A stretch of 64,000 nt of DNA, from the NCBI GenBank assembly GCA_041737595.1, contig JBGSRK010000010.1, forward strand, positions 46,393-110,392. Reading direction: 5' to 3'. The notes below the pieces were generated by a model, which ran no database searches, had not been told where the DNA came from, and saw nothing but the letters and a program-made list of their open reading frames with translations. Numbering within the stretch: the stretch's first letter is position 1; each line of letters begins with the position of its first letter. The position numbers and the translations under genes are program-made. Shown one piece after another: positions 4,161 through 35,602 of this stretch. Origin of the DNA: Patescibacteria group bacterium. GTDB lineage: Bacteria > Patescibacteriota > CPR2 > UBA1875.

Positions 4161-5018
4161 CTAAGCTTTTCCAGCACTCCCAAATAATCTGATTTTCTCA
4201 ATAACAACTTTTTCTACTGCTTCACCACCAGCTGGTAAGTATTTATAAGGGACTACTTGGTCTGGGTGAACCTCAAATTCATGTAAAATTCCTTTATGAA
4301 ATGCCACTCTTAATTCAGTATTAACATTAATTTTTACCACACCAAGCGCGATGGCTTTTTTAATTTGATTTTTAGGTATTCCAGAACCTCCGTGTAGAGA
4401 AAAATATTTTTTTACTAGTTTTTTAATTTCTTTAAGTCTTTCAAAATCAAGTTGAGGAGGATTTGAATATATACCATGGATATTACCAATAGAGACAGCG
4501 AGAACATCTACTCCTGTCTCTCTTACAAATTTTAAAGCTTCTTTAGGATCAGTTAAATTTTCTTCTGCAATTTCAATTTTCTTTGAATGAGATTCAGAAC
4601 TACCTGCTATATGACCTATTTCCCCCTCAATTGAAAGATTATGTAAATGGGCTAATTTTGTTGCAACTTTTGTTAGTTTCACGTTTTCGTTGTATGGGAG
4701 TGATGAACCATCTAGGTGGATTGAAGTATAACCAGCCTCAATCGCATTTTTAACAGACTCTAATGAAGCACCATGATCTAAATGTAAAACAATTGGTATT
4801 TTAGATTTTTTTGCTAACTCTTTCACTTCTGCGGCGGATATTTCAGGTGTAAGATGCTTCATTTCTCCTTCTGAAGTTTCAATAATTACAGGTGAATTCA
4901 TTTTTTCAGCAGCAGAAATAATTGCTTTCGTTATTTCTAAATTTGAAGTATTAAAAGCACCAATCGCATAACCACCTTTTTGGGCTTTTTTAAATATATT
5001 TTTTGATGTTGTTAACAA
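4161..5018 (-). CDS. fba: class II fructose-bisphosphate aldolase
   Basis: GAFN, HLDHG and the 285 aa length are typical of class II FBA/tagatose-bisphosphate aldolase. It sits in the glycolytic operon with tpi, pgk and gap. Confidence 0.85.
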   Translation of the reverse strand: MLTTSKNIFKKAQKGGYAIGAFNTSNLEITKAIISAAEKMNSPVIIETSEGEMKHLTPEISAAEVKELAKKSKIPIVLHLDHGASLESVKNAIEAGYTSIHLDGSSLPYNENVKLTKVATKLAHLHNLSIEGEIGHIAGSSESHSKKIEIAEENLTDPKEALKFVRETGVDVLAVSIGNIHGIYSNPPQLDFERLKEIKKLVKKYFSLHGGSGIPKNQIKKAIALGVVKINVNTELRVAFHKGILHEFEVHPDQVVPYKYLPAGGEAVEKVVIEKIRLFGSAGKA

Positions 5019-9161: not shown

Positions 9162-9345
9162 ATAAATAACTCCTTATAAAATTTTGAACTGCCTATATAA
9201 TACTCCAATTAATATTTGTATTGCAAGGGGGGAAGGTTATTTTACGTTATTGTGAACAATAGCACGACAATCTATTTTCAACCACTCAGGGGTTCTTATA
9301 CCTTGACCACTAAAAAAGCCAGCGAGGTGCAAGCACTTCTCTGGC

Positions 9346-9364
9346 TTTTTGGCAGTCCCAAGGG
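9346..9364 (-). repeat. duplicated 3'-terminal fragment of tRNA-Glu (TTTTTGGCAGTCCCAAGGG), ~170 bp beyond the intact tRNA 3' end
   Basis: A 19-nt identical match to 9527-9545. The flanking ~60 bp (CCTTGAMACTAAAAARAGCC…) is also duplicated. Confidence 0.5.
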
Positions 9365-9531
9365 AACGACAAGTCGTATTCTCACCGCTATTCATAGTTA
9401 TATACTAGTGAAAGCAGAGCACTTTAGCTGTCATTCTGAACTTGTTTCAGAATCTATGTTTTTATCATGCAGGGCTTCTTACCCCTTGAAACTAAAAAGA
9501 GCCCGAGCGGATAAACCGTTCTGACTCTTTT

Positions 9532-9606
9532 TGGCAGTCCCAAGGGGATTCGAACCCCTGTTACTAGGATGAAAACCTAGCGTCCTAACCCCTAGACGAT
9601 GGGACC
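9532..9606 (-). tRNA. tRNA-Glu(TTC), CCA encoded
   Basis: Hand-folded cloverleaf: acceptor GGTCCCA/TGGGACT, D-stem GTCT/GGAC, anticodon stem CTAGG/CCTAG with loop TTTTCAT, T-arm AGGGG-TTCGAAT-CCCCT. Confidence 0.85.
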
Positions 9607-9855
9607 ATAAAAATTTATGTCACGTAATAACCTTTCTCTGATCTGCCCGTGACTTTTAAGCTGTTTTTCTCTCTTTCGAGCATCTGCATAGTTTTTATAC
9701 TGCTCTAGGTGTGCAATAACAAACGGTGCTCTTCCTTTAGTTGATTTATTATAACCTCTATTATGTTGATATAGTCTAGATTCAAAATTTTTTGTTATAC
9801 CAATGTAGAATCCTTTGTCCCTATCACTTTTCAAGATATAAACATAACAAATCAT
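9592..9855 (-). CDS. GIY-YIG nuclease family protein (UPF0213/YhbQ-like)
   Basis: VYILKSDRDKGFYIGITKNFESRLYQHN … E..LK is the GIY-YIG core. The track ORF (to 9981) has an N-terminal extension that just translates a tRNA fragment, so the start is more likely the ATG at 9855. The last 5 codons overlap the tRNA-Glu 5' end. Confidence 0.65.
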   Translation of the reverse strand: MICYVYILKSDRDKGFYIGITKNFESRLYQHNRGYNKSTKGRAPFVIAHLEQYKNYADARKREKQLKSHGQIRERLLRDINFYGPIV

Positions 9856-9877
9856 TATTCGATTATAAAGGTTTTTT

Positions 9878-9921
9878 GTCCTAACCTCTAGACCCTGCCT
9901 GCCGCAGGCGGGGATGGGACC
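9878..9921 (-). pseudogene. tRNA-Glu 5' fragment (acceptor/D-arm copy) interrupted by a 19-nt GC palindrome
   Basis: GGTCCCATC[CCCGCCTGCGGCAGGCAGG]GTCTAGAGGTTAGGAC matches the first 25 nt of the intact tRNA-Glu, then diverges directly into the GIY-YIG ORF. Confidence 0.5.
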
Positions 9922-10081
9922 GTGGACGCCACAAATTATACCATTCTTGAGCGTAAATTTCAATTCTAAATTATAAAACAAATACTAAAGCTATAAAGAT
10001 AGTTATTAAATCTTTTTTTATATTATTATTTGGATTAGTTATGCTCATATCCACCTTAATGAATCAGATGGTTTATTCCAT

Positions 10082-10612
10082 CTATCTCTCAAGCCACTGC
10101 TGTTTAAGATAAACTTCAGAATCGTGATTATTTTGTAACCAATCTCGAAGTGAAAAAATATTAAGAACTACTAATGGTTTTGCCTTCATGATTTTGTTAT
10201 TTAGTTTGTAATAAATTTCTTCCTTGCCACCCAGAAATCCTAAGGCTATCGACTTCTTAATATTTGAAGTTTTTTTATTAACCCCATATGCACTTAAATC
10301 TAAAGTTGGTGTTATTTTCCAAAACCTTGGCAGATTATCATATGTGAATCCTTGATCACCTATATTCCCAACCTTCTCGACTCCCAGTTCTTGCATATTC
10401 TTATTATTTAAACCAACAAAAACAGTAAAATCAGGCTTTTTTGCGAACATTTTTCTAAGTTTTTCTTCTGCTGGTCTTTTATTAAATTTTTGATTGTAAC
10501 AATTCATTAATAACCCATATTTTGGTAATTTTTGATAATCGAAAACAGCCAATACATAAGTAAGTCCTAAGCTTGTTGGTATTTCTAAAATATCACCAAT
10601 TTTTATGTTCAT
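10082..10612 (-). CDS. putative immunity protein for the upstream RHS C-terminal toxin
   Basis: 176 aa ORF immediately 3' of the RHS toxin gene on the same strand with a 28-bp gap. This is the canonical toxin/immunity position. No catalytic motifs. Confidence 0.45.
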   Translation of the reverse strand: MNIKIGDILEIPTSLGLTYVLAVFDYQKLPKYGLLMNCYNQKFNKRPAEEKLRKMFAKKPDFTVFVGLNNKNMQELGVEKVGNIGDQGFTYDNLPRFWKITPTLDLSAYGVNKKTSNIKKSIALGFLGGKEEIYYKLNNKIMKAKPLVVLNIFSLRDWLQNNHDSEVYLKQQWLER

Positions 10613-10640: not shown

Positions 10641-13600
10641 TTATCTTAATAGGGCTTTCGTACCTTCATTTATGTAATGGCTATAATTAGGGTTTAGTGT
10701 AGATATCCCATTAATTTTATTTGCTAAATTAGTCAAGCCACCGTTATTATCTATTAATATCTGTTCAACGCCTCTCGCCTGAGCGTAAGTAAGATTACTA
10801 TAAACTTCCTGCACGATACGACCATCAGAAGACCACTCTTTTGCCCTTCGTACTATATCAACCGTTCTCCCTACGTAGTTTATAACCCCAGCAGATTTCT
10901 CCACATATACCGAATAGGTCCTGTCTGCTAACCCATTAGCGGCGGTAATGGTTGTACTAGATGCCACCAAGGCTTTGGCCAATATCGTTACGGAAGCTGC
11001 TGTAATGCCAGCGCTAATAGCGCCACTAATTGCCCCGCCAATTGCACCCGCAGTACTGCCCTTACTAAAACCATTATTAAATGAGTTACCGATGCTTGAC
11101 TTTTTACCACTCGCCCTGTCGATAGCCACCTGGGTAAGACCTCCAGCAACCCCACCAGCCACATAACCGGCAAGTGCACCCGTTATTGCACCTGCAACGA
11201 ATGCACCAGCAACATAACCAGCACCTGTGCCAAGCCCTCCCGTAGCTAAGCCGACCACCGCACCCACCGCAACACCAACTACCGTCCCAACAACCCCACC
11301 AACAATGGCTGCAGCATTGTTTTTCACCCAGCTAAAAAAACCTTTACCACTAGGGTCAATCCTAGTAATTGGGTTATTGGCCGTGTAAAGATATGGATTT
11401 TGATCTAGCGCAAATTCACTGGCCACCACAGGATCTTTTGAAAAGAACCGGCCCGTTTCGGGATCATACATACGAACCTTCATGAAGTACTGTGCAAGGT
11501 CAGAGTCGTACCAATAAGAAGCATATAATCTAGGGTTAAGTTCATTGAGATTTGCAGGTACGGTGTCTGATATAGTTTCCGACTTAAGAACGTTACCCCA
11601 AGAATCATATTCATAATTAACCACCTTAGCACCGGTGGTGTCCGTAAGCCCCAGTACATCGCCCTTAGCATTTTTTACATATTGATACGTTTTAAATGTC
11701 CCATCTGAATTGTATATAGAGATACTGATAAGGTTTTCATTTTCATCCCAAGTATATGCCCTAATCAAATTGCCATTTAAATCAGACTCAGAAATCAGCA
11801 TATCTCCGTCATAAGAGAAATTTATATAAGATTTAGTACCCGCTGTGTCGGTTTTAATACGTTGGATTCTCCGTCCAGAATTTGAATCATAAATGTACTC
11901 AATAACAACACCAGAAGGCAAAATTGCTTTCTTGAGCTTATTTGAACTATCATATTCATAGTTGGTAATACCTGATTTACTGTTGTTGCGACTTGTAACA
12001 TTCCCTGATTTATCATAAGAAAAAGTAGCCGAATAACTATTATTTTCGTCGTTGGCCGTGTAATTATACTGAGTAAGCTTATTACCATCACCGTTCTCAT
12101 CATAAGTATAATTTATAACGCCATCAGAACCATTTCGTGTGAGTCGGTTACCGGCAATATCATAACTATAACTATATTTTTCATCTTCAGTTAATTGGTT
12201 CCTTACATCATAGGAATAATTAAATCTTTCTTGCCTTACTTTATCAATTATCGAGGTAACGTTTGAATTGGCATCATATTCATAACCAAACGACGCCAGA
12301 ACCATAGCATTGCGATTAGTAGTTACCGTTGATATAGTACGTCCACCATTGTCATAACCAAATCTAGTTATATCACCATTTGCTTTTGTAATTTGAGTAA
12401 TTTTACCTTCCGCATCTCGCAATATTTGACCACTTGCCAGTACAGCGCCATTACTATTTTGTATATTAGTCACACCAGTCACCTGGTTATTCACATCGTA
12501 AGTCAGACTCACTGTATTTGTTGCGGAAACAGATTGAGTGATATTACCGGCTGCATCTACAGCATCTCTTGCAATACCATTAGTATTTGTTGCAATTTGA
12601 GTAGGTCTATTAACTGGGTCATAACTTACTGAAACGGTTTCGGAACCAGATGAAACCTGGAGATCATCAAAGGAAGCATTAGTTTGATAAGTCGCAAGTT
12701 CTATTTGACCTTCTTTAAGTCCACGCGTAAAGGTGTAATCAATAACTTTTACATTATTTACATATAGTTTTACATTTTCACCCAAAGACACAATTTTTAT
12801 GTTGTACCATGTATTTACAGCCAAAGTCCCAGTACCATTTGCGTATTGTTCTGTCTGACCAGTTATTACTGCCCCGGCACGCCATAATGAACCGATGTAG
12901 CCAATATAATAGTTATTGGCTCCACTAGAGCGATAAAGTAATCTAAAATACGGAGCAGTGGTTGAAGAACGGCGTACTCTAAATTCAACTGTACCATTAG
13001 AAAAGTTTAGATTTCGAATAGTGCTTTTACGATAAGTAGTTATAGCAGTTGAACTATCGGTTTGATTATATGTACCGCCAGTTAGATTCCAGCTACCAGA
13101 TATAGGCGCAAGTGAATCTTGGCGTGTAATATTAAAATCGTTTTTATATAACAATTTATTCACACTTGTAGTACCAGTAACTGCTGTTACATTATGATTT
13201 TTGTCATAAATATTATTTGAGCCACCCTCAGGAGTTACTGAATTTACAACAGCGCCCATCTTGTCATAAGTAGAAGTAGAGGTATTCCCCTTTTCGTCAG
13301 TAGTAGAAACAATATTCCCATTTCTATCATAAGTTACATTTATCGTATTACCTTCTGGGTCGGTCTGTGAAATAATTTGATTTAATACATCAAAGTTATA
13401 AGTAAAAATCTTTCCTTTTGCGTTTATCATTTTTACTTTATTCCCCACCTTGTCATATTCAAATTGAGTAGTAGCACCAGCTTCATCTGTCGCTTTTATC
13501 ATACGACCCAGTAAATCATAATCCATTAATCTTGCATTGCTTTTAGGGTCAGTTGTCTTGATTACATTACCACCTACACTATATTCAGTAATAATTGTTG

Positions 13601-16600
13601 TTCCTAAAGGATCAGTAACTTTTACTGGCCGATTAAGTCCGTCATATTCAATAGTAGAAATCTTACCAAGCGTAGATATATTCTTTATAATTAGCCCAAT
13701 ACTGTTATATTCGTTAGTCATAATTTCTCCTTTAGGAGTAACAGCCGTAAGAATATCTCCCTCCGAATTATAGGTATAACGGCTTACTTGTAATTTAGGG
13801 TCAGTAACCGAAACTATTCTGCCCATCGCATCATACCCATAAGTAGTAACCTTGGCGTTACTGTCGGTAACACTTAAAAGAAGTCTTTTACCATCTGTAG
13901 AATAAGTATATCTTGTAATTTGACCCTTCATATCTGTAGAAGAAGTCATATCATTCCCTACATATACATAAGTAGTTTTATTACCATCAGGATAAGTTGT
14001 CTCTAATAGATTACGATTAACATCATATTTATAATTTATGGAGTAGTAATAAATATCGTTTGTAGCAAGATCAGGGAATGTTTTTGTAAGATTAAAATTT
14101 ATATCATAAACATATTTTTCACGATAATTTTTAGCATTTGTCATCGTAGACAACATATTTGCACTATCAAACCCCAATTTAGTCACTCGACCAAGAGGGT
14201 CAGTAATAGTTGTTAATCTATCGACATATGTAATATTTGTTGCATTTCCGAGAGCATCCGTAATTGCATTAACTTTGTCCCCAGTATATGTTATCGAAGT
14301 AACAGCACCAGCTTTATCCCTAAATCTTTCTAATTTACTTGTTTCAATATATGAATATTCATAATAATTATCTTGACCATCAAACACTTTAGATAACACT
14401 CCATTTGCATCATATTCGTAACGAACCGCTTGATTTGCATTATTATTAACCTTTATTAGGCGACTGGCGGCATTATACTCAAACGCAAGTGACCGATTCT
14501 GATTAATTATACGTGAACAAAGACCATTAACATATTCATAACTTAAAGTATTACCTAATAAATTCGTTTTACGACTTATTTTCCCATCGGTACCAAAATA
14601 GCTTTTGTTACCAGATTTATCTAAAAGATAATATGTTCCATCCAAATTTTTAGTTAGAGATACAGTTATTCCTGCTGGTTTCTTATAGGTACCATCAGTA
14701 TTTTTTGTATATACATTAATATTTCCTGATCCATTTTTGTAATAGATATTTTCAGGATCAGATATATACAACCTCTCCTCAAAACTAGCACTCCAACCAC
14801 TCCCTAATACACCTTGATCTTTCCAAATTTCAGGGTTATAAGTACTATATATAAGCCCACTTAATGGTTGAGCAGATGTATTTGTAAATCTCGCCGACAT
14901 CTGCCAGCTGGCGGAGCCTTGAGAAACCTTTAAGGTAAGTGAGTTCCAGCCCTGTCGCAAATTTGCAGATACTATGTCACTATCAAGAGTTAGTGTTCTA
15001 GTAATTTCTCGAGAAATAAGAACTGTTCCATTTAACCAAGCCTTAATCCCATCATCAGAACCTAATCTTAATTGTACTGTCTGATCTGACGGTGAATAGA
15101 CATAAACATGAGCGTAGGCAGAAACATTAGTGGCCGTATCTACTTGGAAATTTGATAAACGGTGAAAAACCTGATTAAGTCTAACTTGAGTAGTCTCTGT
15201 TTCTGTTTCGGGGGCCCATAGATTATTACTTCCAGTCATACCTGGGCTTGGTTTCATAGTAGCTTCACCAGGTATAAATGCTTTAGTCAGCCTACTAGCA
15301 ACCACTGCTTCTTTATATGGACCATTAAAAAGCCATGTCTTTATATACCCATTTGCATCTTGATTAAAAGTCTTATTAGAAAGCTGATTTGAATCATAGC
15401 TTCTGCTAAATGAAACACCACCAATACTTGAAGGTACTGACATATCAGTAGAACTATAAGAAATTCCACCCGTTACAGCATCAACTGGCCCTACTTTAGA
15501 ATAAATCGAGTCAGACCCAATATGAGTTATAGAAGAAAATGATGGAGCACTTACCGTAACGGTTTTGAGACCCTTAACTACACCTTGATCAGAAAACCAA
15601 GTAATACCTGGCTGTATCATATCCCATTGAAGAGTATATGACCCAGCAATAGTTGGCACCTTCACTTTTGCTAAAACCGTTGTTATCCCACCCTTAGCAG
15701 CCACATTTGCTGGTATATCTGTCTGTAGCCCTGATTTTAAGACGGCACCGGTAGTATTATTAACCCAGTGATAACTAACCTTAGTTTGGCTAGATAACCA
15801 AACATTTCTACCCGTGTTTACAACTGTAATTGGAACTTCCGTCGTTGTACCTGCAAACATGGACGGTACATCAGTAGGATAATAAGTAGCATTATAATCA
15901 TTATAACTAACGGTTAATTTAGGATAACTATTACTGTAGTCAGGGTTATTCTTGGAAACCCAGGTGCGATAGCCCCAAGTACCTTCTGCGGTAGAGGCAA
16001 AACCAATAGAACCAATCCAAGATCCCGTGCTATTTCCACCTTCATACCAATGTCTCACTAGACTCGATACATCTTGATGGTACCAACCATATGGGTTTGC
16101 TTGTGAAGCAGACCCCCAACTATTAAGAAAAGCTGGTTTATTATTCCAATAAACATTAGTGGGGTTATAAGAAGCAGTTGTATAAGCAGTTACACTACTT
16201 GTAGGACAAACTCCATTACAGTTACCATATTGGTAAACATCAAAAGCAGCACTTAAAATTCGAGCACCAGAAAGGTCAGGTAAAGTAAACTTTGTTTCGG
16301 TTCTCATAATCCCTTTTGTTGAACCAGTCCCTACATATAATGCACGTTGATCCCACGATGTTGTTGTAGGATAACCACTTTGGACATAAGAATCCTCGGT
16401 TACATATTGAGTAATTGTAGGATCAATATAAATTGGGAATACACGCTCAGGTGCACTAAGCCACCTTAAGTCAGGTTTTACTGTTAAACGATAACCACCA
16501 GTAATAGTGCTTAAAACAGTGGGTACATTATAATTATATGAATTCTGTTCATTATCTTTACCACCTTTCGAATCCCACATTAAAAAACGTGGGATACGAA

Positions 16601-17309
16601 ATATTTCAGTATTAGTTCTTGCACTTACAATTTTATATGAACCATCACCTATCGCCGCAATTGTCCCACCACTTACAGCTAAGTCAAAAGAAAATTCTCC
16701 TAAAGAACTCTGTTTATAAAGTGTAATATATTCTTTTATACCATCATTAACTGAGTAAAAAGTTAAATCAGTATTTGGTATTACATTGGCATAATTAAGT
16801 TTATTAGTACCAGTTGTATAAGTTTTTGATGAAGCAGTTGATTTTGTAAGAAGCGTAGCACCTGTTTTAGATTTGAATTCACCAATATTGGCAGTAATAG
16901 AAACACCATCTTTATTTAATGAAAAACTTTTTTTTGAAAGATTCTTACTGAGTCTTAAATCAAAACTATTTTTATTATTTTTATAATCATCACCATATAA
17001 AAGACTACTTAAAAGACCAGTATCCGTAATATTTGAATCAATGTCCTCAAAAGTCCTTACATTATTTATTGTACTTTCATAATGCATAGGTATTTCGGCT
17101 GTTACTAGCTCCTTACTACCATCGGACTTAAGATAAATTTTGCTATTTTCTGTTCTTTTTGATGTAAGTTCTATTTTACCAGTGGCGGGTGGGGTAGGTT
17201 CTGCCTCAGCCGTAGCATCAGCAGCAGCAAAAGCAACTGATGGAGTAACTGGTAAAAGAGAAAACATCATTATAAATATTAAAAACCAGGAAAACATTTT
17301 TCTAAGCAT
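10641..17309 (-). CDS. secreted RHS/YD-repeat polymorphic toxin, 2222 aa: signal peptide, PA14-like and LamG-like inserts, YD repeats, RHS core (…YDPETGRFFSKDP…DPSGKG), Gly/Ala/Val-rich glycine-zipper segment, C-terminal GIY-YIG-like nuclease toxin domain
   Basis: N-terminal MLRKMFSWFLIFIMMFSLLPVTPSVAFA signal and many YEYD/YTYD/FEYD repeats. RHS core motif present. C-terminal YSVYVEKSAGVINYVGRTVDIVRRAKEW…GVEQIL resembles a GIY-YIG (URI) fold. GGAGGAGG RBS 5 nt upstream. GC clearly above the genome background. Confidence 0.85.
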   Translation of the reverse strand: MLRKMFSWFLIFIMMFSLLPVTPSVAFAAADATAEAEPTPPATGKIELTSKRTENSKIYLKSDGSKELVTAEIPMHYESTINNVRTFEDIDSNITDTGLLSSLLYGDDYKNNKNSFDLRLSKNLSKKSFSLNKDGVSITANIGEFKSKTGATLLTKSTASSKTYTTGTNKLNYANVIPNTDLTFYSVNDGIKEYITLYKQSSLGEFSFDLAVSGGTIAAIGDGSYKIVSARTNTEIFRIPRFLMWDSKGGKDNEQNSYNYNVPTVLSTITGGYRLTVKPDLRWLSAPERVFPIYIDPTITQYVTEDSYVQSGYPTTTSWDQRALYVGTGSTKGIMRTETKFTLPDLSGARILSAAFDVYQYGNCNGVCPTSSVTAYTTASYNPTNVYWNNKPAFLNSWGSASQANPYGWYHQDVSSLVRHWYEGGNSTGSWIGSIGFASTAEGTWGYRTWVSKNNPDYSNSYPKLTVSYNDYNATYYPTDVPSMFAGTTTEVPITVVNTGRNVWLSSQTKVSYHWVNNTTGAVLKSGLQTDIPANVAAKGGITTVLAKVKVPTIAGSYTLQWDMIQPGITWFSDQGVVKGLKTVTVSAPSFSSITHIGSDSIYSKVGPVDAVTGGISYSSTDMSVPSSIGGVSFSRSYDSNQLSNKTFNQDANGYIKTWLFNGPYKEAVVASRLTKAFIPGEATMKPSPGMTGSNNLWAPETETETTQVRLNQVFHRLSNFQVDTATNVSAYAHVYVYSPSDQTVQLRLGSDDGIKAWLNGTVLISREITRTLTLDSDIVSANLRQGWNSLTLKVSQGSASWQMSARFTNTSAQPLSGLIYSTYNPEIWKDQGVLGSGWSASFEERLYISDPENIYYKNGSGNINVYTKNTDGTYKKPAGITVSLTKNLDGTYYLLDKSGNKSYFGTDGKISRKTNLLGNTLSYEYVNGLCSRIINQNRSLAFEYNAASRLIKVNNNANQAVRYEYDANGVLSKVFDGQDNYYEYSYIETSKLERFRDKAGAVTSITYTGDKVNAITDALGNATNITYVDRLTTITDPLGRVTKLGFDSANMLSTMTNAKNYREKYVYDINFNLTKTFPDLATNDIYYYSINYKYDVNRNLLETTYPDGNKTTYVYVGNDMTSSTDMKGQITRYTYSTDGKRLLLSVTDSNAKVTTYGYDAMGRIVSVTDPKLQVSRYTYNSEGDILTAVTPKGEIMTNEYNSIGLIIKNISTLGKISTIEYDGLNRPVKVTDPLGTTIITEYSVGGNVIKTTDPKSNARLMDYDLLGRMIKATDEAGATTQFEYDKVGNKVKMINAKGKIFTYNFDVLNQIISQTDPEGNTINVTYDRNGNIVSTTDEKGNTSTSTYDKMGAVVNSVTPEGGSNNIYDKNHNVTAVTGTTSVNKLLYKNDFNITRQDSLAPISGSWNLTGGTYNQTDSSTAITTYRKSTIRNLNFSNGTVEFRVRRSSTTAPYFRLLYRSSGANNYYIGYIGSLWRAGAVITGQTEQYANGTGTLAVNTWYNIKIVSLGENVKLYVNNVKVIDYTFTRGLKEGQIELATYQTNASFDDLQVSSGSETVSVSYDPVNRPTQIATNTNGIARDAVDAAGNITQSVSATNTVSLTYDVNNQVTGVTNIQNSNGAVLASGQILRDAEGKITQITKANGDITRFGYDNGGRTISTVTTNRNAMVLASFGYEYDANSNVTSIIDKVRQERFNYSYDVRNQLTEDEKYSYSYDIAGNRLTRNGSDGVINYTYDENGDGNKLTQYNYTANDENNSYSATFSYDKSGNVTSRNNSKSGITNYEYDSSNKLKKAILPSGVVIEYIYDSNSGRRIQRIKTDTAGTKSYINFSYDGDMLISESDLNGNLIRAYTWDENENLISISIYNSDGTFKTYQYVKNAKGDVLGLTDTTGAKVVNYEYDSWGNVLKSETISDTVPANLNELNPRLYASYWYDSDLAQYFMKVRMYDPETGRFFSKDPVVASEFALDQNPYLYTANNPITRIDPSGKGFFSWVKNNAAAIVGGVVGTVVGVAVGAVVGLATGGLGTGAGYVAGAFVAGAITGALAGYVAGGVAGGLTQVAIDRASGKKSSIGNSFNNGFSKGSTAGAIGGAISGAISAGITAASVTILAKALVASSTTITAANGLADRTYSVYVEKSAGVINYVGRTVDIVRRAKEWSSDGRIVQEVYSNLTYAQARGVEQILIDNNGGLTNLANKINGISTLNPNYSHYINEGTKALLR

Positions 17310-31972: not shown

Positions 31973-32048
31973 TGGTGGGCCCGGTGCGGCTCGAACGCAC
32001 GACCAATTGCTTAAGAGGCAACTGCTCTACCAGCTGAGCTACGGGCCC
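31973..32048 (-). tRNA. tRNA-Lys(CTT), CCA encoded
   Basis: Hand fold: acceptor GGGCCCG/CGGGCCC, anticodon stem GTTGC/GCAAT with loop CTCTTAA, T-arm GTGCG-TTCGAGC-CGCAC. Confidence 0.85.
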
Positions 32049-32080
32049 ACGTCGGAATTCGCTGACGGATTCCGACGTGG
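32049..32080 (-). other. GC-rich perfect hairpin (CACGTCGGAAT-loop-ATTCCGACGTG) abutting the 5' end of tRNA-Lys
   Basis: 11-bp perfect stem immediately upstream of the mature tRNA 5' end. A related hairpin precedes tRNA-Arg(TCT). Confidence 0.35.
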
Positions 32081-32123
32081 GCCAAACCAAGTCTTCATCC
32101 TTTCGCAAATCCTCCTCTTTCGG

Positions 32124-32144
32124 CAAAAATCAATAGATTTTGTC
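32124..32144. promoter_or_regulatory. conserved palindrome AAAATC-AATA-GATTTT ~80 bp upstream of tRNA-Lys, with an inverted second copy at 32155-32170
   Basis: Same core upstream of tRNA-Arg(TCT) and of the Pro-Gly-Arg-His tRNA cluster. Confidence 0.45.
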
Positions 32145-32243
32145 GATTTAAAATGAAAATCTGTTGGTTTTCATTTTTGAGGAAGAATAACGAGAAACCG
32201 AAAAAAATATATAATTTTGAAGGTTGTCAGTTTATTCTGATGA

Positions 32244-32319
32244 TGGTGCGCCCGGTAGGATTCGAACCTACGACCAATAGCTTAGAAGGCTACTGCTCTA
32301 TCCCCTGAGCTACGGGCGC
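32244..32319 (-). tRNA. tRNA-Arg(TCT), CCA encoded
   Basis: Hand fold: acceptor GCGCCCG/CGGGCGC, anticodon stem GTAGC/GCTAT with loop CTTCTAA, T-arm GTAGG-TTCGAAT-CCTAC. Confidence 0.85.
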
Positions 32320-32345
32320 ACGTCAGCGAAAGCTGACGTGCTTCA
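32320..32345 (-). other. GC-rich hairpin (CACGTCAGC-GAA-GCTGACGTG) abutting the 5' end of tRNA-Arg(TCT)
   Basis: 9-bp perfect stem. Shares GCTGACG with the tRNA-Lys-associated hairpin. Confidence 0.35.
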
Positions 32346-32390
32346 AAATAATTTATATTATTTATTCCGCACTTACGCTACGCTTCCTTT

Positions 32391-32419
32391 GCAATTTAAA
32401 TCAACAGATTTAAATTGTC
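32391..32419. promoter_or_regulatory. conserved palindrome AATTTAAATC-AACA-GATTTAAATT ~75 bp upstream of tRNA-Arg(TCT)
   Basis: 10-bp perfect arms. The core AAATC-AACA-GATTT is shared with the other two tRNA loci. Confidence 0.45.
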
Positions 32420-32508
32420 TTTTTAACTTCGATATTATAACGTATTTCAAGAAAATATTCCATTGTTTAAACTAGTTTGATACAATATAATATGTAAAAG
32501 AGGGGAAA

Positions 32509-33183
32509 ATGGACTCAACAATAAAACCACAAAATGAATTTTATACACCTGAAACAGGAATAGTTCCTGGCGCTGAATCTCAGGTCGCTCAGGCTGGACA
32601 AGATATTAGTGCAGAAAATCCATTCCCAAATATCCAACCTTCTGAAATTCTCACAAATACAATGGCTTCAGAGGTTACTCAACCACAGTCAGAATTACCA
32701 GTTGAGTCTGATGATGAATTGGCAAAAGAAATTAACGCTGGGCCAGATTTAAAAGTTGTACCAGACCCTGCAGAAATTTCTATTGATTCTACTTATACTA
32801 ATGATGTCCCCGAAGCTACCCCAACAGTGATTGAACCAGCACCAATTGAAACTGTTCAACCCGAAATTGTAGCCGAAACACCTGAAGTAATAGAAGAAGT
32901 AAAGGAAGATCCAGAAGCAATATTATCAGAAATTGACGAAGACTTTGAAGCTATAGATGGGAAAATTGCAGAATATCTAAGTGCAAACCGAGAAAAAATA
33001 ACCTCTTTAGAAGATTCTATTAAAGAGGCCGAAGATAGACTTGAGAATACAAGACTTGCAACAGAACAAAGTATTAAAGATAAAAAAGCTGAAATTGTTG
33101 AACTTAAAAAAATGCGAGACAGAATAAGTGCTTATAAAGAGAGAACTAAAATAAATAAAAATCCTACTGAAATCGCAGCATAA
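32509..33183 (+). CDS. hypothetical acidic protein with Pro/Glu-rich N-terminus and C-terminal coiled coil
   Basis: 224 aa, low complexity, no catalytic motif. Confidence 0.4.
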   Translation: MDSTIKPQNEFYTPETGIVPGAESQVAQAGQDISAENPFPNIQPSEILTNTMASEVTQPQSELPVESDDELAKEINAGPDLKVVPDPAEISIDSTYTNDVPEATPTVIEPAPIETVQPEIVAETPEVIEEVKEDPEAILSEIDEDFEAIDGKIAEYLSANREKITSLEDSIKEAEDRLENTRLATEQSIKDKKAEIVELKKMRDRISAYKERTKINKNPTEIAA

Positions 33184-33197
33184 AATACCCGTGTTTA

Positions 33198-33914
33198 TTA
33201 TTTTATAACGAACCCGATATACCTTGCAGATATATTTTTAGGTAATAAATCTAGTATTTTACCAAAAAAATTTATTACATTTTCTAATATAGAATAGTAT
33301 CTGCCTTTTTTGGTTACAAATCTAAAATAAAAATGTCCAACATAATCTGCTTTCGTTAAATTATGGTCAGTTGTCCTGATATATCTTTTTATTTTATTTA
33401 GAGACATAGCATCAGATATATGATTTTCAAGAACCTTAGGTTCTAATATTTTATAAAGAAAATGGTAAAGTGGAGAATTTAGATTTGGAACTTCTATTAA
33501 GCATATTCCATTTTTACCCATTAAATTTAAGTGTTTATCAATTATTTTTGTCCAATTATTAAAATGTTCAATAAATCCAAAAGAACATACTAAATCATAT
33601 TTTCTAAAAGATCTGTAATTAAGAAAGTCATTTTTTTGGAATACCCCACATTTATAGTTTTTAGACTTAAACCACTCTTCCATAACATTAATATTTTCGT
33701 TCCAATCTACACCGTTTATTTCATAGCCCATTTTGCCTATTAAAGCTAGAAATTTTCCTGGATAACAACCTATTTCAAGACATTTTAGATTATCCCCTGT
33801 TGGAGTATTATTATTTATCCATAAAGCAACAGGATGAGTAGTTATAGTAGCCTCTTTATATATAACTTTTCCCCAATGTTCTTCCCAATAATTAATATCT
33901 GTTATTGACCCCAT
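33198..33914 (-). CDS. class I SAM-dependent methyltransferase
   Basis: Motif I CLEIGCYPGKFLALIG and a post-I acidic residue. 238 aa. Confidence 0.6.
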   Translation of the reverse strand: MGSITDINYWEEHWGKVIYKEATITTHPVALWINNNTPTGDNLKCLEIGCYPGKFLALIGKMGYEINGVDWNENINVMEEWFKSKNYKCGVFQKNDFLNYRSFRKYDLVCSFGFIEHFNNWTKIIDKHLNLMGKNGICLIEVPNLNSPLYHFLYKILEPKVLENHISDAMSLNKIKRYIRTTDHNLTKADYVGHFYFRFVTKKGRYYSILENVINFFGKILDLLPKNISARYIGFVIK

Positions 33915-34000
33915 AAATTGATTTTAACACAAAAAAGAAACTGTTTAAGGTTTCTTTTTTATAATAATTACTGGGGTCGGATAGTGAGAGATATCAGAAC
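33915..34000 (-). promoter_or_regulatory. duplicated ~85-bp upstream module copy 1: extended -10 (TGTGTTAAAAT) abutting the ATG, hairpin + T-run, and a conserved 29-nt box TGGGGTCGGATAGTGAGAGATATCAGAAC
   Basis: Near-identical architecture and sequence to 34354-34439. Confidence 0.45.
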
Positions 34001-34014
34001 CGAGATTTTTAGAA

Positions 34015-34353
34015 CTATTTAACACACGCTAATATAATAAAAGCAAAAACTGCTAAAGTTATACCAAAATATCCTATTGGCGACAAAACTTCTTTCAAAA
34101 ATAAAAAACTTAATAAATTAACAAGAATAATAGAAAAAGCACCAAACATTGCCATTGTTTTTCCAACTGGCATTGTGGTGAAAACATATAATTGTCCAAA
34201 TGTTGCTACGGTTCTCATTAATGTATATCCCAGAAACCACCAGGTAAGAAATGTTGAAATAGTAAAACCATTTCTTTGCATACCACTTTTTGCTAAGATG
34301 TCCCCTGAGGTAAAAAGAATCTGAGATATTGCTAAAACTATTAACGGATTCAT
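34015..34353 (-). CDS. small 4-TM membrane protein, SMR/EamA (DMT superfamily)-like
   Basis: 112 aa with four hydrophobic helices. Resembles single-domain DMT/ArnE-like small transporters. Confidence 0.5.
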   Translation of the reverse strand: MNPLIVLAISQILFTSGDILAKSGMQRNGFTISTFLTWWFLGYTLMRTVATFGQLYVFTTMPVGKTMAMFGAFSIILVNLLSFLFLKEVLSPIGYFGITLAVFAFIILACVK

Positions 34354-34439
34354 AAAATAATTTTAACACAAAAAGGAACCTAAATCGGTCCCTTTTTGTA
34401 ATATTTAAAATGGGGTCGGATAGTGCGAGAAGTCAGAAC
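34354..34439 (-). promoter_or_regulatory. duplicated upstream module copy 2 (box TGGGGTCGGATAGTGCGAGAAGTCAGAAC)
   Basis: Same elements as copy 1: TTGTGTTAAAAT before the ATG, a hairpin/T-run, and the 29-nt box with 3 substitutions. Confidence 0.45.
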
Positions 34440-34478
34440 TAAAATAGTACAAAATGCTATTAATTTTGCAAAATTGGT

Positions 34479-35186
34479 TTGATGGTGCTAAAATTAAATA
34501 TGGATAGAGACGTCAAACAGATTGAGTCGATTTACGGAAGCAACACCTTCCTGAGCGAACAAAAAGAAAATAAAGAAGTGAAGCACCTAAGAAGGGTGTT
34601 TTTTTCGTTAACAAAGGATTTGCACGGCAAAAGAATATTATTCATTGGTTGTGGTGATGGCGAAGAATCCATCCAATACAGCAAATGTGGTGCAACAGCA
34701 TATGGTGTTGATATTAGTCCCTTATTAATCGCGGAAGCGAAAAAAAACAATCCTTTGGGTAAATTTATGGCAGGAGATTTTCGGAATATTGCTATAAAGA
34801 ACTCTTTTGATATTGTTGTATCTATTTTGTCACTGCATTACTCAAAAGATTTAAATAACTCGTTTTCAAAAATATACACACTTCTTAAGCCTGGTGGGAT
34901 TTGCTTGATAGCGACCACTCACCCAACCCATAAAATGGTTACATACAACAACGGGAATTATTTTCGAAAAGGTAAGGTTTGGTATGAATGGAAGGGGTTA
35001 AAAAGATTTAATTATTTCTATCTTATAGAAGATTATATAAACGGTTTTGCAAAAAGTAATTTTCAGATAAAAGAAATGCTTGAAGTTTTTACCCCAGTTA
35101 AATTCCGTTCAGTAGAAAATAAAAATAATGAAAACCCTATCTTTACTATATATAAGATTAAAAAACCATTAAATCAAATAGATTAA
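34479..35186 (+). CDS. class I SAM-dependent methyltransferase
   Basis: Motif I ILFIGCGDGEES and motif II VDISPLLIAEAKKN. 235 aa. Confidence 0.65.
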   Translation: MMVLKLNMDRDVKQIESIYGSNTFLSEQKENKEVKHLRRVFFSLTKDLHGKRILFIGCGDGEESIQYSKCGATAYGVDISPLLIAEAKKNNPLGKFMAGDFRNIAIKNSFDIVVSILSLHYSKDLNNSFSKIYTLLKPGGICLIATTHPTHKMVTYNNGNYFRKGKVWYEWKGLKRFNYFYLIEDYINGFAKSNFQIKEMLEVFTPVKFRSVENKNNENPIFTIYKIKKPLNQID

Positions 35187-35221
35187 TTCTGATAAGGCAT
35201 CTTCTAGGGTAAATATTAGAA

Positions 35222-35252
35222 CTAAAAAAGAAGTCCTTTTGAACTTCCTTTT
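35222..35252 (-). terminator. rho-independent terminator downstream of the tRNA cluster (GGAAGT-loop-ACTTCT + T-run in minus sense)
   Basis: Hairpin plus TTTTTT immediately 3' of tRNA-His on the minus strand. Confidence 0.45.
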
Positions 35253-35267
35253 TAATCTTTTCAAAAC

Positions 35268-35345
35268 TGGGGTGGCTGATGGGATTCGAACCCACGACCC
35301 TCGGCACCACAAGCCGATGCTCTAACCAACTGAGCTACAACCACC
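35268..35345 (-). tRNA. tRNA-His(GTG) with encoded G-1 and CCA
   Basis: Hand fold: extra 5' G pairing with discriminator C, acceptor GTGGTTG/CAGCCAC, anticodon loop TTGTGGT. Confidence 0.85.
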
Positions 35346-35349
35346 ACGT

Positions 35350-35426
35350 TGGTGCGCCCTGAGGGATTCGAACCCCCGGCCTTCTGGTCCGAAGCCAGAC
35401 GCTCTATCCAGCTGAGCTAAGGGCGC
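35350..35426 (-). tRNA. tRNA-Arg(TCG), CCA encoded
   Basis: Acceptor GCGCCCT/AGGGCGC, anticodon stem TCTGG/CCAGA with loop CTTCGGA, T-loop TTCGAAT. Confidence 0.8.
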
Positions 35427-35449
35427 ACATTTTTTAGTTTCTTATATAT

Positions 35450-35524
35450 TGGAGCGGGTAAGGAGAGTCGAACTCCTGTCTTCAGCTTGGAAGGCTGACA
35501 TAATAGCCACTATACGATACCCGC
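35450..35524 (-). tRNA. tRNA-Gly(TCC), CCA encoded, U73 discriminator
   Basis: Acceptor GCGGGTA/TACCCGC, anticodon stem TCAGC/GCTGA with loop CTTCCAA, T-arm AGGAG-TTCGACT-CTCCT. Confidence 0.85.
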
Positions 35525-35526
35525 AT

Positions 35527-35602
35527 TGGTCGGGGAGACAGGACTCGAACCTGCGACCTCATGGTCCCAAACCACGCGCGCTACCAGCTGCGCCACTCCC
35601 CG
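35527..35602 (-). tRNA. tRNA-Pro(TGG), CCA encoded
   Basis: Acceptor CGGGGAG/CTCCCCG, anticodon stem CGTGG/CCATG with loop TTTGGGA, T-arm GCAGG-TTCGAGT-CCTGT. Confidence 0.85.

Follow-up and report, generated by a model that had tools for sequence, protein, structure and literature searches.

The DNA stretch analyzed here, a window of 64,000 nucleotides (nt) on contig JBGSRK010000010.1 of a Patescibacteria group bacterium, contains a tRNA-Glu gene whose surroundings raise a question: how did an intact tRNA gene come to be preceded by a broken copy of its own 5' end and by a small open reading frame (ORF) of the GIY-YIG nuclease family that runs into it? The answer favored by the evidence presented here, which we consider probable though far from assured, is that the locus is a mobile, selfish GIY-YIG element resident in the tRNA-Glu gene and a member of the 5'-type, with the ORF 5' of the tRNA, of a widespread family. 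Its features, in the order in which they are transcribed, are the following.

9935-9963, minus strand: native tRNA promoter, a sigma-70-type site with TTGAAA, a 17-nt spacer and a TG-extended TATAAT (11 of 12 consensus positions), the best such site of the region.
9913-9921, minus strand: displaced copy of tRNA-Glu nt 1-9, GGTCCCATC, matching at 9 of 9 bases; the same piece is found in the related loci L001 and L123.
9894-9912, minus strand: 19-nt GC palindrome, CCCGCCTGCGGCAGGCAGG, placed exactly between tRNA nt 9 and 10.
9878-9893, minus strand: displaced copy of tRNA-Glu nt 10-25 (D-arm), GTCTAGAGGTTAGGAC, matching at 15 of 16 bases.
9856-9877, minus strand: AT-rich 22-nt linker with a TATAAT 6 nt 5' of the ATG; 18 of its 22 bases are kept in L001.
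9592-9855, minus strand: predicted GIY-YIG nuclease ORF, 87 amino acids (aa) plus stop, catalytic domain only (Pfam GIY-YIG, E=1.2e-14).
9532-9606, minus strand: intact tRNA-Glu(UUC), found by ARAGORN and Rfam (62.5 bits), whose 5' end is provided by the element.
9494-9532, no strand assigned: bidirectional terminator hairpin 3' of the tRNA, from the inverted-repeat search.

The intact tRNA, the 5' fragment with its inserted hairpin and the GIY-YIG ORF had been placed at these positions by an initial annotation made from the sequence alone, and ARAGORN, Rfam, Pfam and repeat searches all agree with it. The interrupted 5' fragment (hereafter, the stub), searched as a composite pattern, matched once in the window and in 0 of 100 shuffles, while the 19-nt palindrome also matched once in the complete 64 kb (0 expected, 0 in 100 shuffles). 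Both are therefore beyond chance expectation, and the observation that first drew attention to the locus is confirmed. Lacking a stop codon before the tRNA begins, the ORF runs on through tRNA nt 1-15, which form its final 15 nt, and terminates at the TAG triplet of the D-arm. The element measures 315 bp (9921-9607), the same length as the unit in L001, and since its 3' end carries fresh tRNA nt 1-25, the tRNA is kept intact and the ORF would use the tRNA promoter. This native promoter, now situated just 5' of the displaced stub, probably drives stub, ORF and tRNA as a single transcript, with the linker acting perhaps as an internal promoter or as a 5' untranslated region. A group I or other intron within the tRNA was considered and rejected, no Rfam match besides the tRNA being obtained at E<=10 and none being present in 11 related loci; similarly, no Rfam family matches the stub or the palindrome, either in the window region or in related loci.

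The most direct indication of mobility comes from a metagenome scan with the near-exact tRNA-Glu sequence, for which ten loci were listed. Only L123, of the L001 lineage, carries the element among them, and in seven to eight of the ten the gene is empty, the tRNA following directly after the leader. One of these loci, L129, is an isogenic empty allele of L001: both flanks align, and apart from a clean gap of 315 nt the two do not differ in any major way. Thus, the early proposal that a mobile insertion targeted the tRNA gene is supported, and relatives do not share one stable, invariant arrangement. When L001 and L129 are compared, the leader bases adjoining the insertion differ at 6 of 17 positions, versus 2 of ~62 further upstream, which fits a co-conversion tract, although a leader under relaxed constraint would offer another explanation. 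Comparison of the window with L001 further indicates what is being maintained. Their ORFs show 67% nt identity, with a nonsynonymous divergence (dN) of 0.27 and 45% identity at third codon positions. This last value implies that synonymous sites are saturated, and a dN of 0.27 with saturated synonymous divergence (dS) points to a protein under purifying selection. The non-coding stub, palindrome and linker are identical at 61 of 66 positions (92%) and the tRNA at 70 of 75, so that the stub region, being as conserved as the tRNA, is a constrained cis element and not a decaying pseudogene.

To place the locus in a wider context, one genome per species of the Genome Taxonomy Database (GTDB) was scanned with an alignment of homologous proteins as query, at least 492 of 599 candidate stretches being confirmed; ORF counts given here refer to 93 ORFs in the window and L001-L085. 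The best 80 GTDB species loci among the at least 492 confirmed belong to Bacteroidota, Patescibacteria, Verrucomicrobiota, Planctomycetota (Scalindua), Desulfobacterota, Ignavibacteria, Acidobacteriota, Eremiobacterota and metagenome-assembled genomes (MAGs) labelled Gammaproteobacteria. Homologous ORFs thus come from at least eight phyla, and their carriers include cultured isolates of Aquimarina, Maribacter, Lutimonas and Gaetbulibacter. A tRNA on the same strand directly adjoins 63 of the 93 ORFs, 50 of which lie 5' of it and 13 of which lie 3', and the tRNAs concerned represent 13 amino-acid types. Fusion of the ORF with tRNA fragments, initially regarded as the unusual part of the locus, is therefore the norm for the subfamily. 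Around 31 of the 50 5'-type ORFs have their stop codon inside the tRNA, the recurrent overlaps of 10, 15 and 23 nt corresponding to natural D-arm TAG triplets, and another dozen end at most 5 nt from tRNA nt 1.

An exact look-up of the protein context of the window retrieved no record. The closest homologue, P0002 on L001 (63% aa identity), is likewise an 87-aa ORF with a 15-nt overlap with tRNA-Glu, and L001 agrees with the window base for base in its layout, with the same two stub pieces (nt 1-9 and nt 10-25) around the same palindrome and then a comparable linker; L123 has this layout too. More distant homologues are arranged in the same way next to a tRNA-Ser (L002) and next to a further tRNA-Glu (L003), this latter locus having an additional GIY-YIG ORF 3' of the tRNA and then a tRNA 3'-end duplicate. 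In most loci, 5'-type stubs copy the cognate tRNA from nt 1 to nt 25-60 and are broken by one GC-rich palindrome or by two. The 3'-type mirrors this layout exactly: tRNA and terminator come first, then the ORF, then a displaced 3' stub with a palindrome placed precisely in the T-loop, and finally a second copy of the 3' flank. Copies in tandem or nested arrangement are found in L032, L013, L049 and L072. In L052 (1400-2450) and L072 (1430-1880), the ORF has a palindrome-bearing tRNA stub on either side, and L052 additionally shows, further downstream, three tandem copies of tRNA 3' end plus terminator, one of which has a palindrome where its 5' edge lies. As a separate observation, P0003 (116 aa, on a 551-nt contig) ends in a C-terminal tail, SSNGRTPGFDPGNPGSNPGP, that resembles a translated tRNA T-arm, this ORF call having probably read through the adjoining tRNA.

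Lineages of the ORF appear faithful to a tRNA type over long distances. For 38 of 53 ORFs, the nearest relative adjoins a tRNA of the same amino-acid type, versus a chance estimate of ~20% from tRNA-type frequencies, and some of the same-tRNA pairs cross phyla at 63-72% identity, as is the case of L069 from Kaiserbacteria and L047 from Chitinophaga, both at tRNA-Leu. One MAG contains an Arg-type and a Leu-type lineage (L009, L036), each at the corresponding tRNA, and 5'-type and 3'-type ORFs are intermixed within clades. Horizontal transfer of GIY-YIG genes out of Patescibacteria was independently inferred in a published survey (PMC12455944).

Regarding the encoded protein, its match to Pfam PF01541 covers residues 3-69 with 54.7 bits (cut-off 22.6; E=1.2e-14). 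It contains the motifs YVYIL (Y6) and FYIG (Y17), and Y6, Y17, R27, H31 and E63, which we take to be catalytic by what is known of I-TevI and UvrC, are invariant in the alignments of homologues. The AlphaFold2 (AF2) model (predicted local distance difference test, pLDDT, 86.9) displays the GIY-YIG fold with the order beta-beta-alpha-beta-alpha-alpha. The best solved relatives in phmmer are the UPF0213 proteins 1ywl (1e-4) and 1zg2 (4e-4); Foldseek also ranks UPF0213 first (BH0048, 1zg2, E 5.6e-5), followed by SLX1 nuclease domains (query TM-score, TMq, 0.64-0.68; root-mean-square deviation, rmsd, 2-3 Å), I-TevI coming lower (E>=0.4). Sequence and structure matches thus concur with the YhbQ/UPF0213-like character first attributed to the protein, which according to its model is a catalytic-domain-only predicted nuclease of UPF0213/SLX1 type. 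Neither Pfam nor the AF2 model reveals a second domain in the 87 aa, including the SLX1 C-terminal zinc finger, nor any NUMOD, IENR1 or helix-turn-helix (HTH) DNA-binding domain. The nuclease SLX1 is structure-selective, cleaving branched and stem-loop DNA where junctions occur, and YhbQ and YazA are said to belong to its family (PMC7017083).

The 19-nt insert within the stub is no incidental hairpin but a variant of a palindrome whose sequence is conserved across phyla and tRNA types, with consensus CCTGCCTGCCGGCAGGCAGG. Variants range from 19 to 32 nt and have in common the ends CCYGCC...GGCRGG. The window copy folds as RNA with -8.3 kcal/mol, and the L001 copy differs from it at the last base only. 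A palindrome with the common ends is located at most 130 nt upstream of 36 of the 50 5'-type ORFs, while different GC hairpins take its place in the Patescibacteria tRNA-Glu clade. All 29 palindrome insertions in stubs are exact, with zero tRNA bases lost or duplicated and no flanking direct-repeat duplication at any of them. Furthermore, 23 of these 29 precise insertions, copies of common descent included, fall at stem/loop junction bonds, which make up 17% of all cloverleaf bonds; the hot spots are the bond between nt 9 and 10, where the window palindrome is found, and the junction of D-loop and D-stem. The palindrome also nests within itself, the 56-nt case of L049 (1424-1479) consisting of one palindrome in the loop of another; in this locus, as in L090 (~4730-4775), the inner palindrome sits at the stem/loop junction of the outer one. 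An assembly or adapter artefact is ruled out by the variation of the palindrome in sequence and length, by its self-nesting and by its presence in cultured isolates.

Palindromes are additionally found away from the nuclease. An unbiased scan of viral contigs returned 42 canonical sites, one beside a GIY-YIG ORF (L117, inside a tRNA stub) and the others mostly in assorted hairpin-rich intergenic DNA. Such scattering indicates that the palindrome is also a dispersed mini-element, in a relationship like that of repetitive extragenic palindromic (REP) sequences to RAYT genes. Carriage of the element by phages was considered and discarded, a search of viral contigs with the alignment-derived pattern revealing no relatives and a single one of the 42 palindromes there being next to a GIY-YIG gene. 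At another of the 42 sites, in L110 (2239-2330), a 92-nt tRNA-Met called by ARAGORN consists of a normal tRNA-Met plus the canonical 20-nt palindrome in the variable region; a related, partly deleted copy of this arrangement exists in L087, and the L110 tRNA-Met might be functional, with the palindrome as an extra arm. Several further observations concern these dispersed copies. In L061 (1840-1965), a near full-length pseudo-tRNA-Leu with two canonical palindromes, in its D-loop and in its anticodon loop, and a diverged acceptor 5' strand lies 3' of an intact tRNA-Leu(GAG). L106, L113 and L114 belong to one 29.5-kb IMG/VR contig with at least six canonical palindromes, several of them with common flanks (CCCGTAG before the palindrome and GGGCGGCAC after it), so they may be part of a larger repeat unit; no GIY-YIG relative was detected in the fetched stretches of this contig. 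Finally, some dispersed palindromes of the viral contigs L088, L094 and L104 are accompanied by 7-13-bp direct repeats (CACAGAGA, TCTCGTCTCTCGCT, TTGCGGA).

Around 15 loci carry relatives without any tRNA, and here a long hairpin encloses the ORF, its terminal inverted repeats measuring 15-26 nt and being 77-100% complementary (for instance, CCAGGTAGTGAAAATTCGA...TCGAATTTCTACTACCTGG), with 4-nt flanking direct repeats, TATG or TACG. In L012, L019, L062 and L026, the insertion point of these hairpin elements coincides exactly with a host start codon, TATG being repeated at both edges (right edges at ~1790 in the first three and at ~1550 in L026); the hosts are XerC-like, FtsA-like and NYN-domain genes, as a further check confirmed. 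The stop codon of the GIY-YIG ORF overlaps the restored host ATG, which suggests translational coupling. In L034, L054 and L073 (~1470-1760), the hairpin element lies within the gene of a 23S-rRNA-intervening-sequence protein (PF05635), and joining the L034 flanks yields a complete 23S_rRNA_IVP Pfam domain (E=1.6e-24). A connection between both kinds of hairpin is provided within the Patescibacteria tRNA-Glu clade by L014, whose stub hairpins have sequence in common with the 3' end of the ORF and the right inverted repeat of the hairpin-enclosed L080. From this sharing, the short palindromes seem to have arisen from autonomous hairpin elements by deletion, with loss of the ORF. The start-codon region ATTATGTTC of L026, L027, L053, L062 and L012 (~1495-1600) pairs perfectly over 12-13 nt with the E-H-N codons GAACATAAT situated ~80 nt downstream, the extensions of the helix covarying between loci, and it may constitute a translation-silencing fold in this hairpin-enclosed clade. 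As a trait of the entire family, a helix sequestering the start codon was rejected as not significant (median of 8 paired bases versus 7.6 in shuffles).

How would an element of this kind spread? We propose homing by repair, a mechanism that, taken alone, we hold to be credible yet slightly short of an even chance. An SLX1-like nuclease would break or nick a cognate tRNA gene that is still empty, the probable place being a stem/loop junction formed when this heavily transcribed DNA folds transiently, and the broken gene would be repaired from an occupied copy. The left break end, bearing tRNA nt 1-X, would pair with the stub and the right end with the rebuilt tRNA, and synthesis across palindrome, linker, ORF and tRNA nt 1-X would restore the whole layout in the recipient, distant genomes included. 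With tRNA nt 1-X on the left and the full tRNA on the right, the tRNA sequence alone gives both homology arms. A model of this type accounts for (i) the fidelity to a tRNA type across phyla, (ii) the 5' and 3' mirror forms, (iii) the conservation of the stub, and (iv) the working tRNA. RNase P cutting at tRNA nt 1 would in addition strip the stop codon from the ORF, holding nuclease levels low. The palindrome would be a cis element of the family, either as binding or cleavage site of the nuclease, as protection of the stub (immunity), or as a lock against excision, this last idea deriving from the consideration that recombination within tRNA nt 10-25 leads to a palindrome-bearing, non-functional tRNA. 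The family palindrome itself resembles an ORF-less derivative of the autonomous relatives that have their ORF inside the hairpin.

Several aspects weigh against a mobile element that homes in this manner. A single clean pair of filled and empty alleles is available, and in it gain is indistinguishable from precise loss through direct repeats. The elements of the window and of L001 both lie near gapdh, so simple vertical inheritance could account for the two. The count of 23 of 29 insertions at junctions is inflated by shared ancestry, independent classes of tRNA family by site giving ~14 of 20. Since 41 of the 42 viral-contig palindromes are far from any GIY-YIG gene, the link between palindrome and nuclease is strong only when viewed from the side of the gene. 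The lack of a DNA-binding domain leaves sequence-specific recognition of the tRNA gene, or of a 20-bp palindrome, unexplained, and because the rebuilt tRNA keeps any target located within the tRNA, homing immunity alone cannot explain why occupied alleles are safe. Finally, nuclease activity, cutting and transfer of the element are all presumed, as is the rest of the mechanism.

The main rival mechanism is a structure-directed transposition, in which the SLX1-like nuclease would cut out or copy the palindrome unit, with or without ORF, in the form of a single-stranded hairpin. Host enzymes would paste it into stem/loop junctions of other folded DNA, the tRNA duplications being secondary, as the only survivable outcome when an essential tRNA gene is hit. 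This alternative explains better than homing the exact palindrome insertions at many non-homologous sites, including the interior of a palindrome (L049) and non-tRNA DNA. It also agrees with the preference for stem/loop junctions, with the SLX1-like fold and with the existence of autonomous relatives bearing terminal inverted repeats and 4-nt direct repeats. Nonetheless, GIY-YIG enzymes hydrolyze DNA, and we know of none that performs strand transfer. The long-term attachment of ORF lineages to one tRNA type, even across phyla, fits better a spread limited by homology. The repeat search detected no terminal inverted repeats around the ORF in the 315-bp unit of the window. We regard transposition as the principal mode of movement as rather unlikely.

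A broader proposal, which we put forward only tentatively, is that of an undescribed class of bacterial mobile DNA made of palindrome-bounded hairpin elements that would be moved by an SLX1-like, catalytic-domain-only GIY-YIG nuclease at stem/loop junctions of folded DNA. Such a class would, just as tentatively, comprise autonomous forms with the ORF inside the hairpin, non-autonomous REP-like palindromes of 19-56 nt, and tRNA-resident forms. These latter, a suggestion to be taken with the same caution, would split and rebuild the gene, hijack its promoter and use the tRNA as a universal homology arm between phyla.

An improbable explanation is that the nuclease is a domesticated module that serves the cell, for example in the repair or maintenance of heavily transcribed tRNA genes, stub and hairpin being a conserved leader that regulates an operon of nuclease and tRNA, with vertical inheritance and sporadic loss of the unit. 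Strong purifying selection on the ORF and on its 66-nt leader, retention of the arrangement in two lineages near gapdh and the presumed coupling of expression to the tRNA promoter would all be expected of a host gene. On the contrary, such a module does not account for the patchy occupancy of near-identical tRNA-Glu genes and the isogenic empty allele, nor for the tandem and nested copies (L032, L013, L049, L072). Equally foreign to it are relatives inside protein-coding genes, among them the one whose joined flanks restore the 23S_rRNA_IVP domain in L034, and nearest relatives that cross phyla, in line with the published transfer of GIY-YIG genes from Patescibacteria (PMC12455944).

The 3' side of the tRNA deserves separate consideration, as it carries the remaining duplicated sequence, with the following features.

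9365-9493, minus strand: ORF-less spacer of the 3' module, ending in GGTGAGAAT and a small hairpin, ACGACTTGTCGT (9377-9366), before the 3'-end copy.
9345-9364, minus strand: exact 20-nt copy of the tRNA 3' end, CCCTTGGGACTGCCAAAAAG (= 9527-9546), from the repeat search.
9268-9350, minus strand: duplicated 3' flank with a second terminator hairpin (arms 9313-9330 and 9333-9350) and the motif AAGG.ATAAGAACCCCTGAGTGG..AAAATAGATT.

The exact repeat of the tRNA 3' end had been noticed from the start; it is 20 nt long and not 19, and the similar flank is longer than the ~60 bp originally given, similarity between the two 3' copies extending over ~95 nt in total, through the second terminator to ...ATAGATT. 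The idea that the ORF is bracketed by both tRNA fragments does not hold, as the ORF lies 5' of the tRNA and the copy 3' of it, forming two independent features. In fact, an ORF-less module of ~170-180 nt is present 3' of tRNA-Glu in the window, L121, L123, L126 and L128, with a shared end (GGTGAGA, the small hairpin, the tRNA 3'-end copy and the second terminator) and the motif AAGGRGTAAGAACCCYTGARTGATAAAA after each terminator. L121, L126 and L128 have the module without a GIY-YIG gene, whereas L001 has the gene without the module, and L001 and L123 carry identical elements with the module in only one of them. Hence, the 3' duplication did not arise together with the 5' one, contrary to the initial assumption, and probably represents an independent, older event. 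Its layout is that of the 3'-type, a stub with a hairpin at the T-loop position, and it may correspond to a non-autonomous or decayed 3'-type element; a tblastn search with the 93 proteins revealed no decayed GIY-YIG ORF in it beyond the tRNA-encoded tail. That this module on its own is a remnant of an integrase attachment (att) site is conceivable, although we lean against it.

As an explanation of the whole locus, with the tRNA ends as attL and attR of a mostly deleted island or prophage at tRNA-Glu and the ORF as leftover cargo, an integrase footprint is highly improbable: integrated elements are commonly flanked by partial tRNA duplicates (bioRxiv 10.1101/2022.07.05.498093) and the 3' module directly repeats the tRNA 3' end and flank as att sites do, but the ORF list and Pfam show no tyrosine or serine recombinase gene between or beside the repeats of the window locus, the 5' duplication covers the tRNA 5' end with the ORF joined to tRNA nt 1, the 315-bp unit is found again where no island exists, and the 3' module spans only ~180 bp, lacks cargo, is conserved in relatives and is unrelated to GIY-YIG presence; no site-specific recombinase is involved.

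Directly upstream of the element lies the gene of an RHS/YD-repeat protein (2222 aa, 10641-17309, minus strand), separated from it by a 176-aa ORF without Pfam match (10082-10612, minus strand), which may encode the cognate immunity protein. Although this neighboring RHS island had been mentioned in connection with the duplications, no link between the RHS and 176-aa genes and the tRNA element is seen at the locus. Six more tRNA genes occur in the window at 31973-35602 (minus strand; Lys, Arg, His, Arg, Gly, Pro), of which four form a tight cluster, and none is associated with a GIY-YIG ORF, a stub or a palindrome. An apparent second GIY-YIG gene at ~35.4 kb was discarded as an artefact of tRNA-encoded C-terminal residues in a read-through query.

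If the reading as a mobile, tRNA-resident element is correct, it describes a way of colonizing an essential gene without intron, intein or integrase, by replacing the displaced part of the tRNA and borrowing its promoter and stop codon. As tRNA sequences are near-universal, the element brings its own homology arms, which could explain related copies in Patescibacteria and Bacteroidota. A concrete role would also be gained for the large UPF0213/YhbQ family of bacterial SLX1 relatives, and a 20-bp palindrome would be tied to a specific enzyme. For annotation, stubs and palindrome-bearing pseudo-tRNAs can mislead tRNA calls, the 92-nt tRNA-Met of L110 being an example, and small ORFs running into tRNA genes are likely mis-called. 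Open-access PMC and bioRxiv literature yielded no description of tRNA-fused GIY-YIG genes, of this palindrome or of a mobile-element role of UPF0213, an absence that is no proof of novelty.

Among known systems, homing endonucleases of the T4 SegB type are the nearest functional analogues. T4 Seg proteins are free-standing GIY-YIG homing endonucleases, and SegB is located in the T4 tRNA gene cluster (PMC2330249). As in the window, a GIY-YIG gene stands beside tRNA genes without an intron, and Seg genes are thought to spread through cutting of the empty allele and its repair by recombination, with co-conversion of flanks. However, they exceed 200 aa and possess DNA-binding modules, while the window protein has 87 aa, comprises the catalytic domain only and is nearer to SLX1 than to I-TevI; moreover, the window element is chromosomal, splits and rebuilds the tRNA gene and carries a conserved palindrome. 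With homing endonuclease genes in general it has in common a presence/absence polymorphism with homologous flanks (L001/L129), but neither a DNA-binding domain nor a splicing intron or intein. Regarding UPF0213/YhbQ/YazA and SLX1 (1zg2, 1ywl, 6seh, 4xm5; PMC7017083), fold and catalytic motifs coincide and give the best matches. The cutting of junctions by SLX1 also matches the junction bias of the palindromes, although the window protein has neither the SLX1 zinc finger nor an SLX4 partner. To our knowledge, E. coli yhbQ has not been reported as fused to a tRNA gene.

Integrase-borne islands and prophages resemble the element in inserting at tRNA genes, keeping a replacement copy and leaving a partial tRNA duplicate (bioRxiv 10.1101/2022.07.05.498093). 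They differ from it in size (10-100 kb versus 0.3 kb) and in their tyrosine or serine recombinase, which the element does not have; besides, the element replaces the 5' as well as the 3' tRNA end, and its stub is broken by a palindrome. The direct repeat of the tRNA 3' end typical of islands is present at the locus (20 nt plus flank), but with ~180 bp and no cargo between the copies. In the REP/RAYT system, REP palindromes are associated with a domesticated Y1 transposase (PMC3733652). Here too, short GC-rich palindromes occur beside a presumed cognate enzyme gene and in many dispersed copies. The enzyme, however, is a GIY-YIG hydrolase instead of an HUH Y1 transposase, the ends are CCYGCC...GGCRGG and not GTAG- or CGTC-tagged, and the window-type system is tied to tRNA genes, with one palindrome in the 64-kb window. 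Regarding insertion sequences and miniature inverted-repeat transposable elements (MITEs), terminal inverted repeats are absent around the ORF of the window but present in about 15 relatives away from tRNA genes, and no recognized transposase family (DDE, HUH, Ser, Tyr, Cas1) was found, only the GIY-YIG and T5orf172 profiles giving matches. GC-rich PstI palindromes flank mitochondrial tRNA genes of Neurospora, and GC clusters are found in yeast mitochondria. Rickettsia palindromic elements, as referred to by citation in PMC3733652, are another case. All of them resemble the present palindromes in being short, GC-rich and precisely placed in or beside RNA and protein genes of AT-rich genomes. 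On the contrary, no cognate enzyme is established for these elements of organelles and Rickettsia, whereas here a nuclease family travels with the palindrome.

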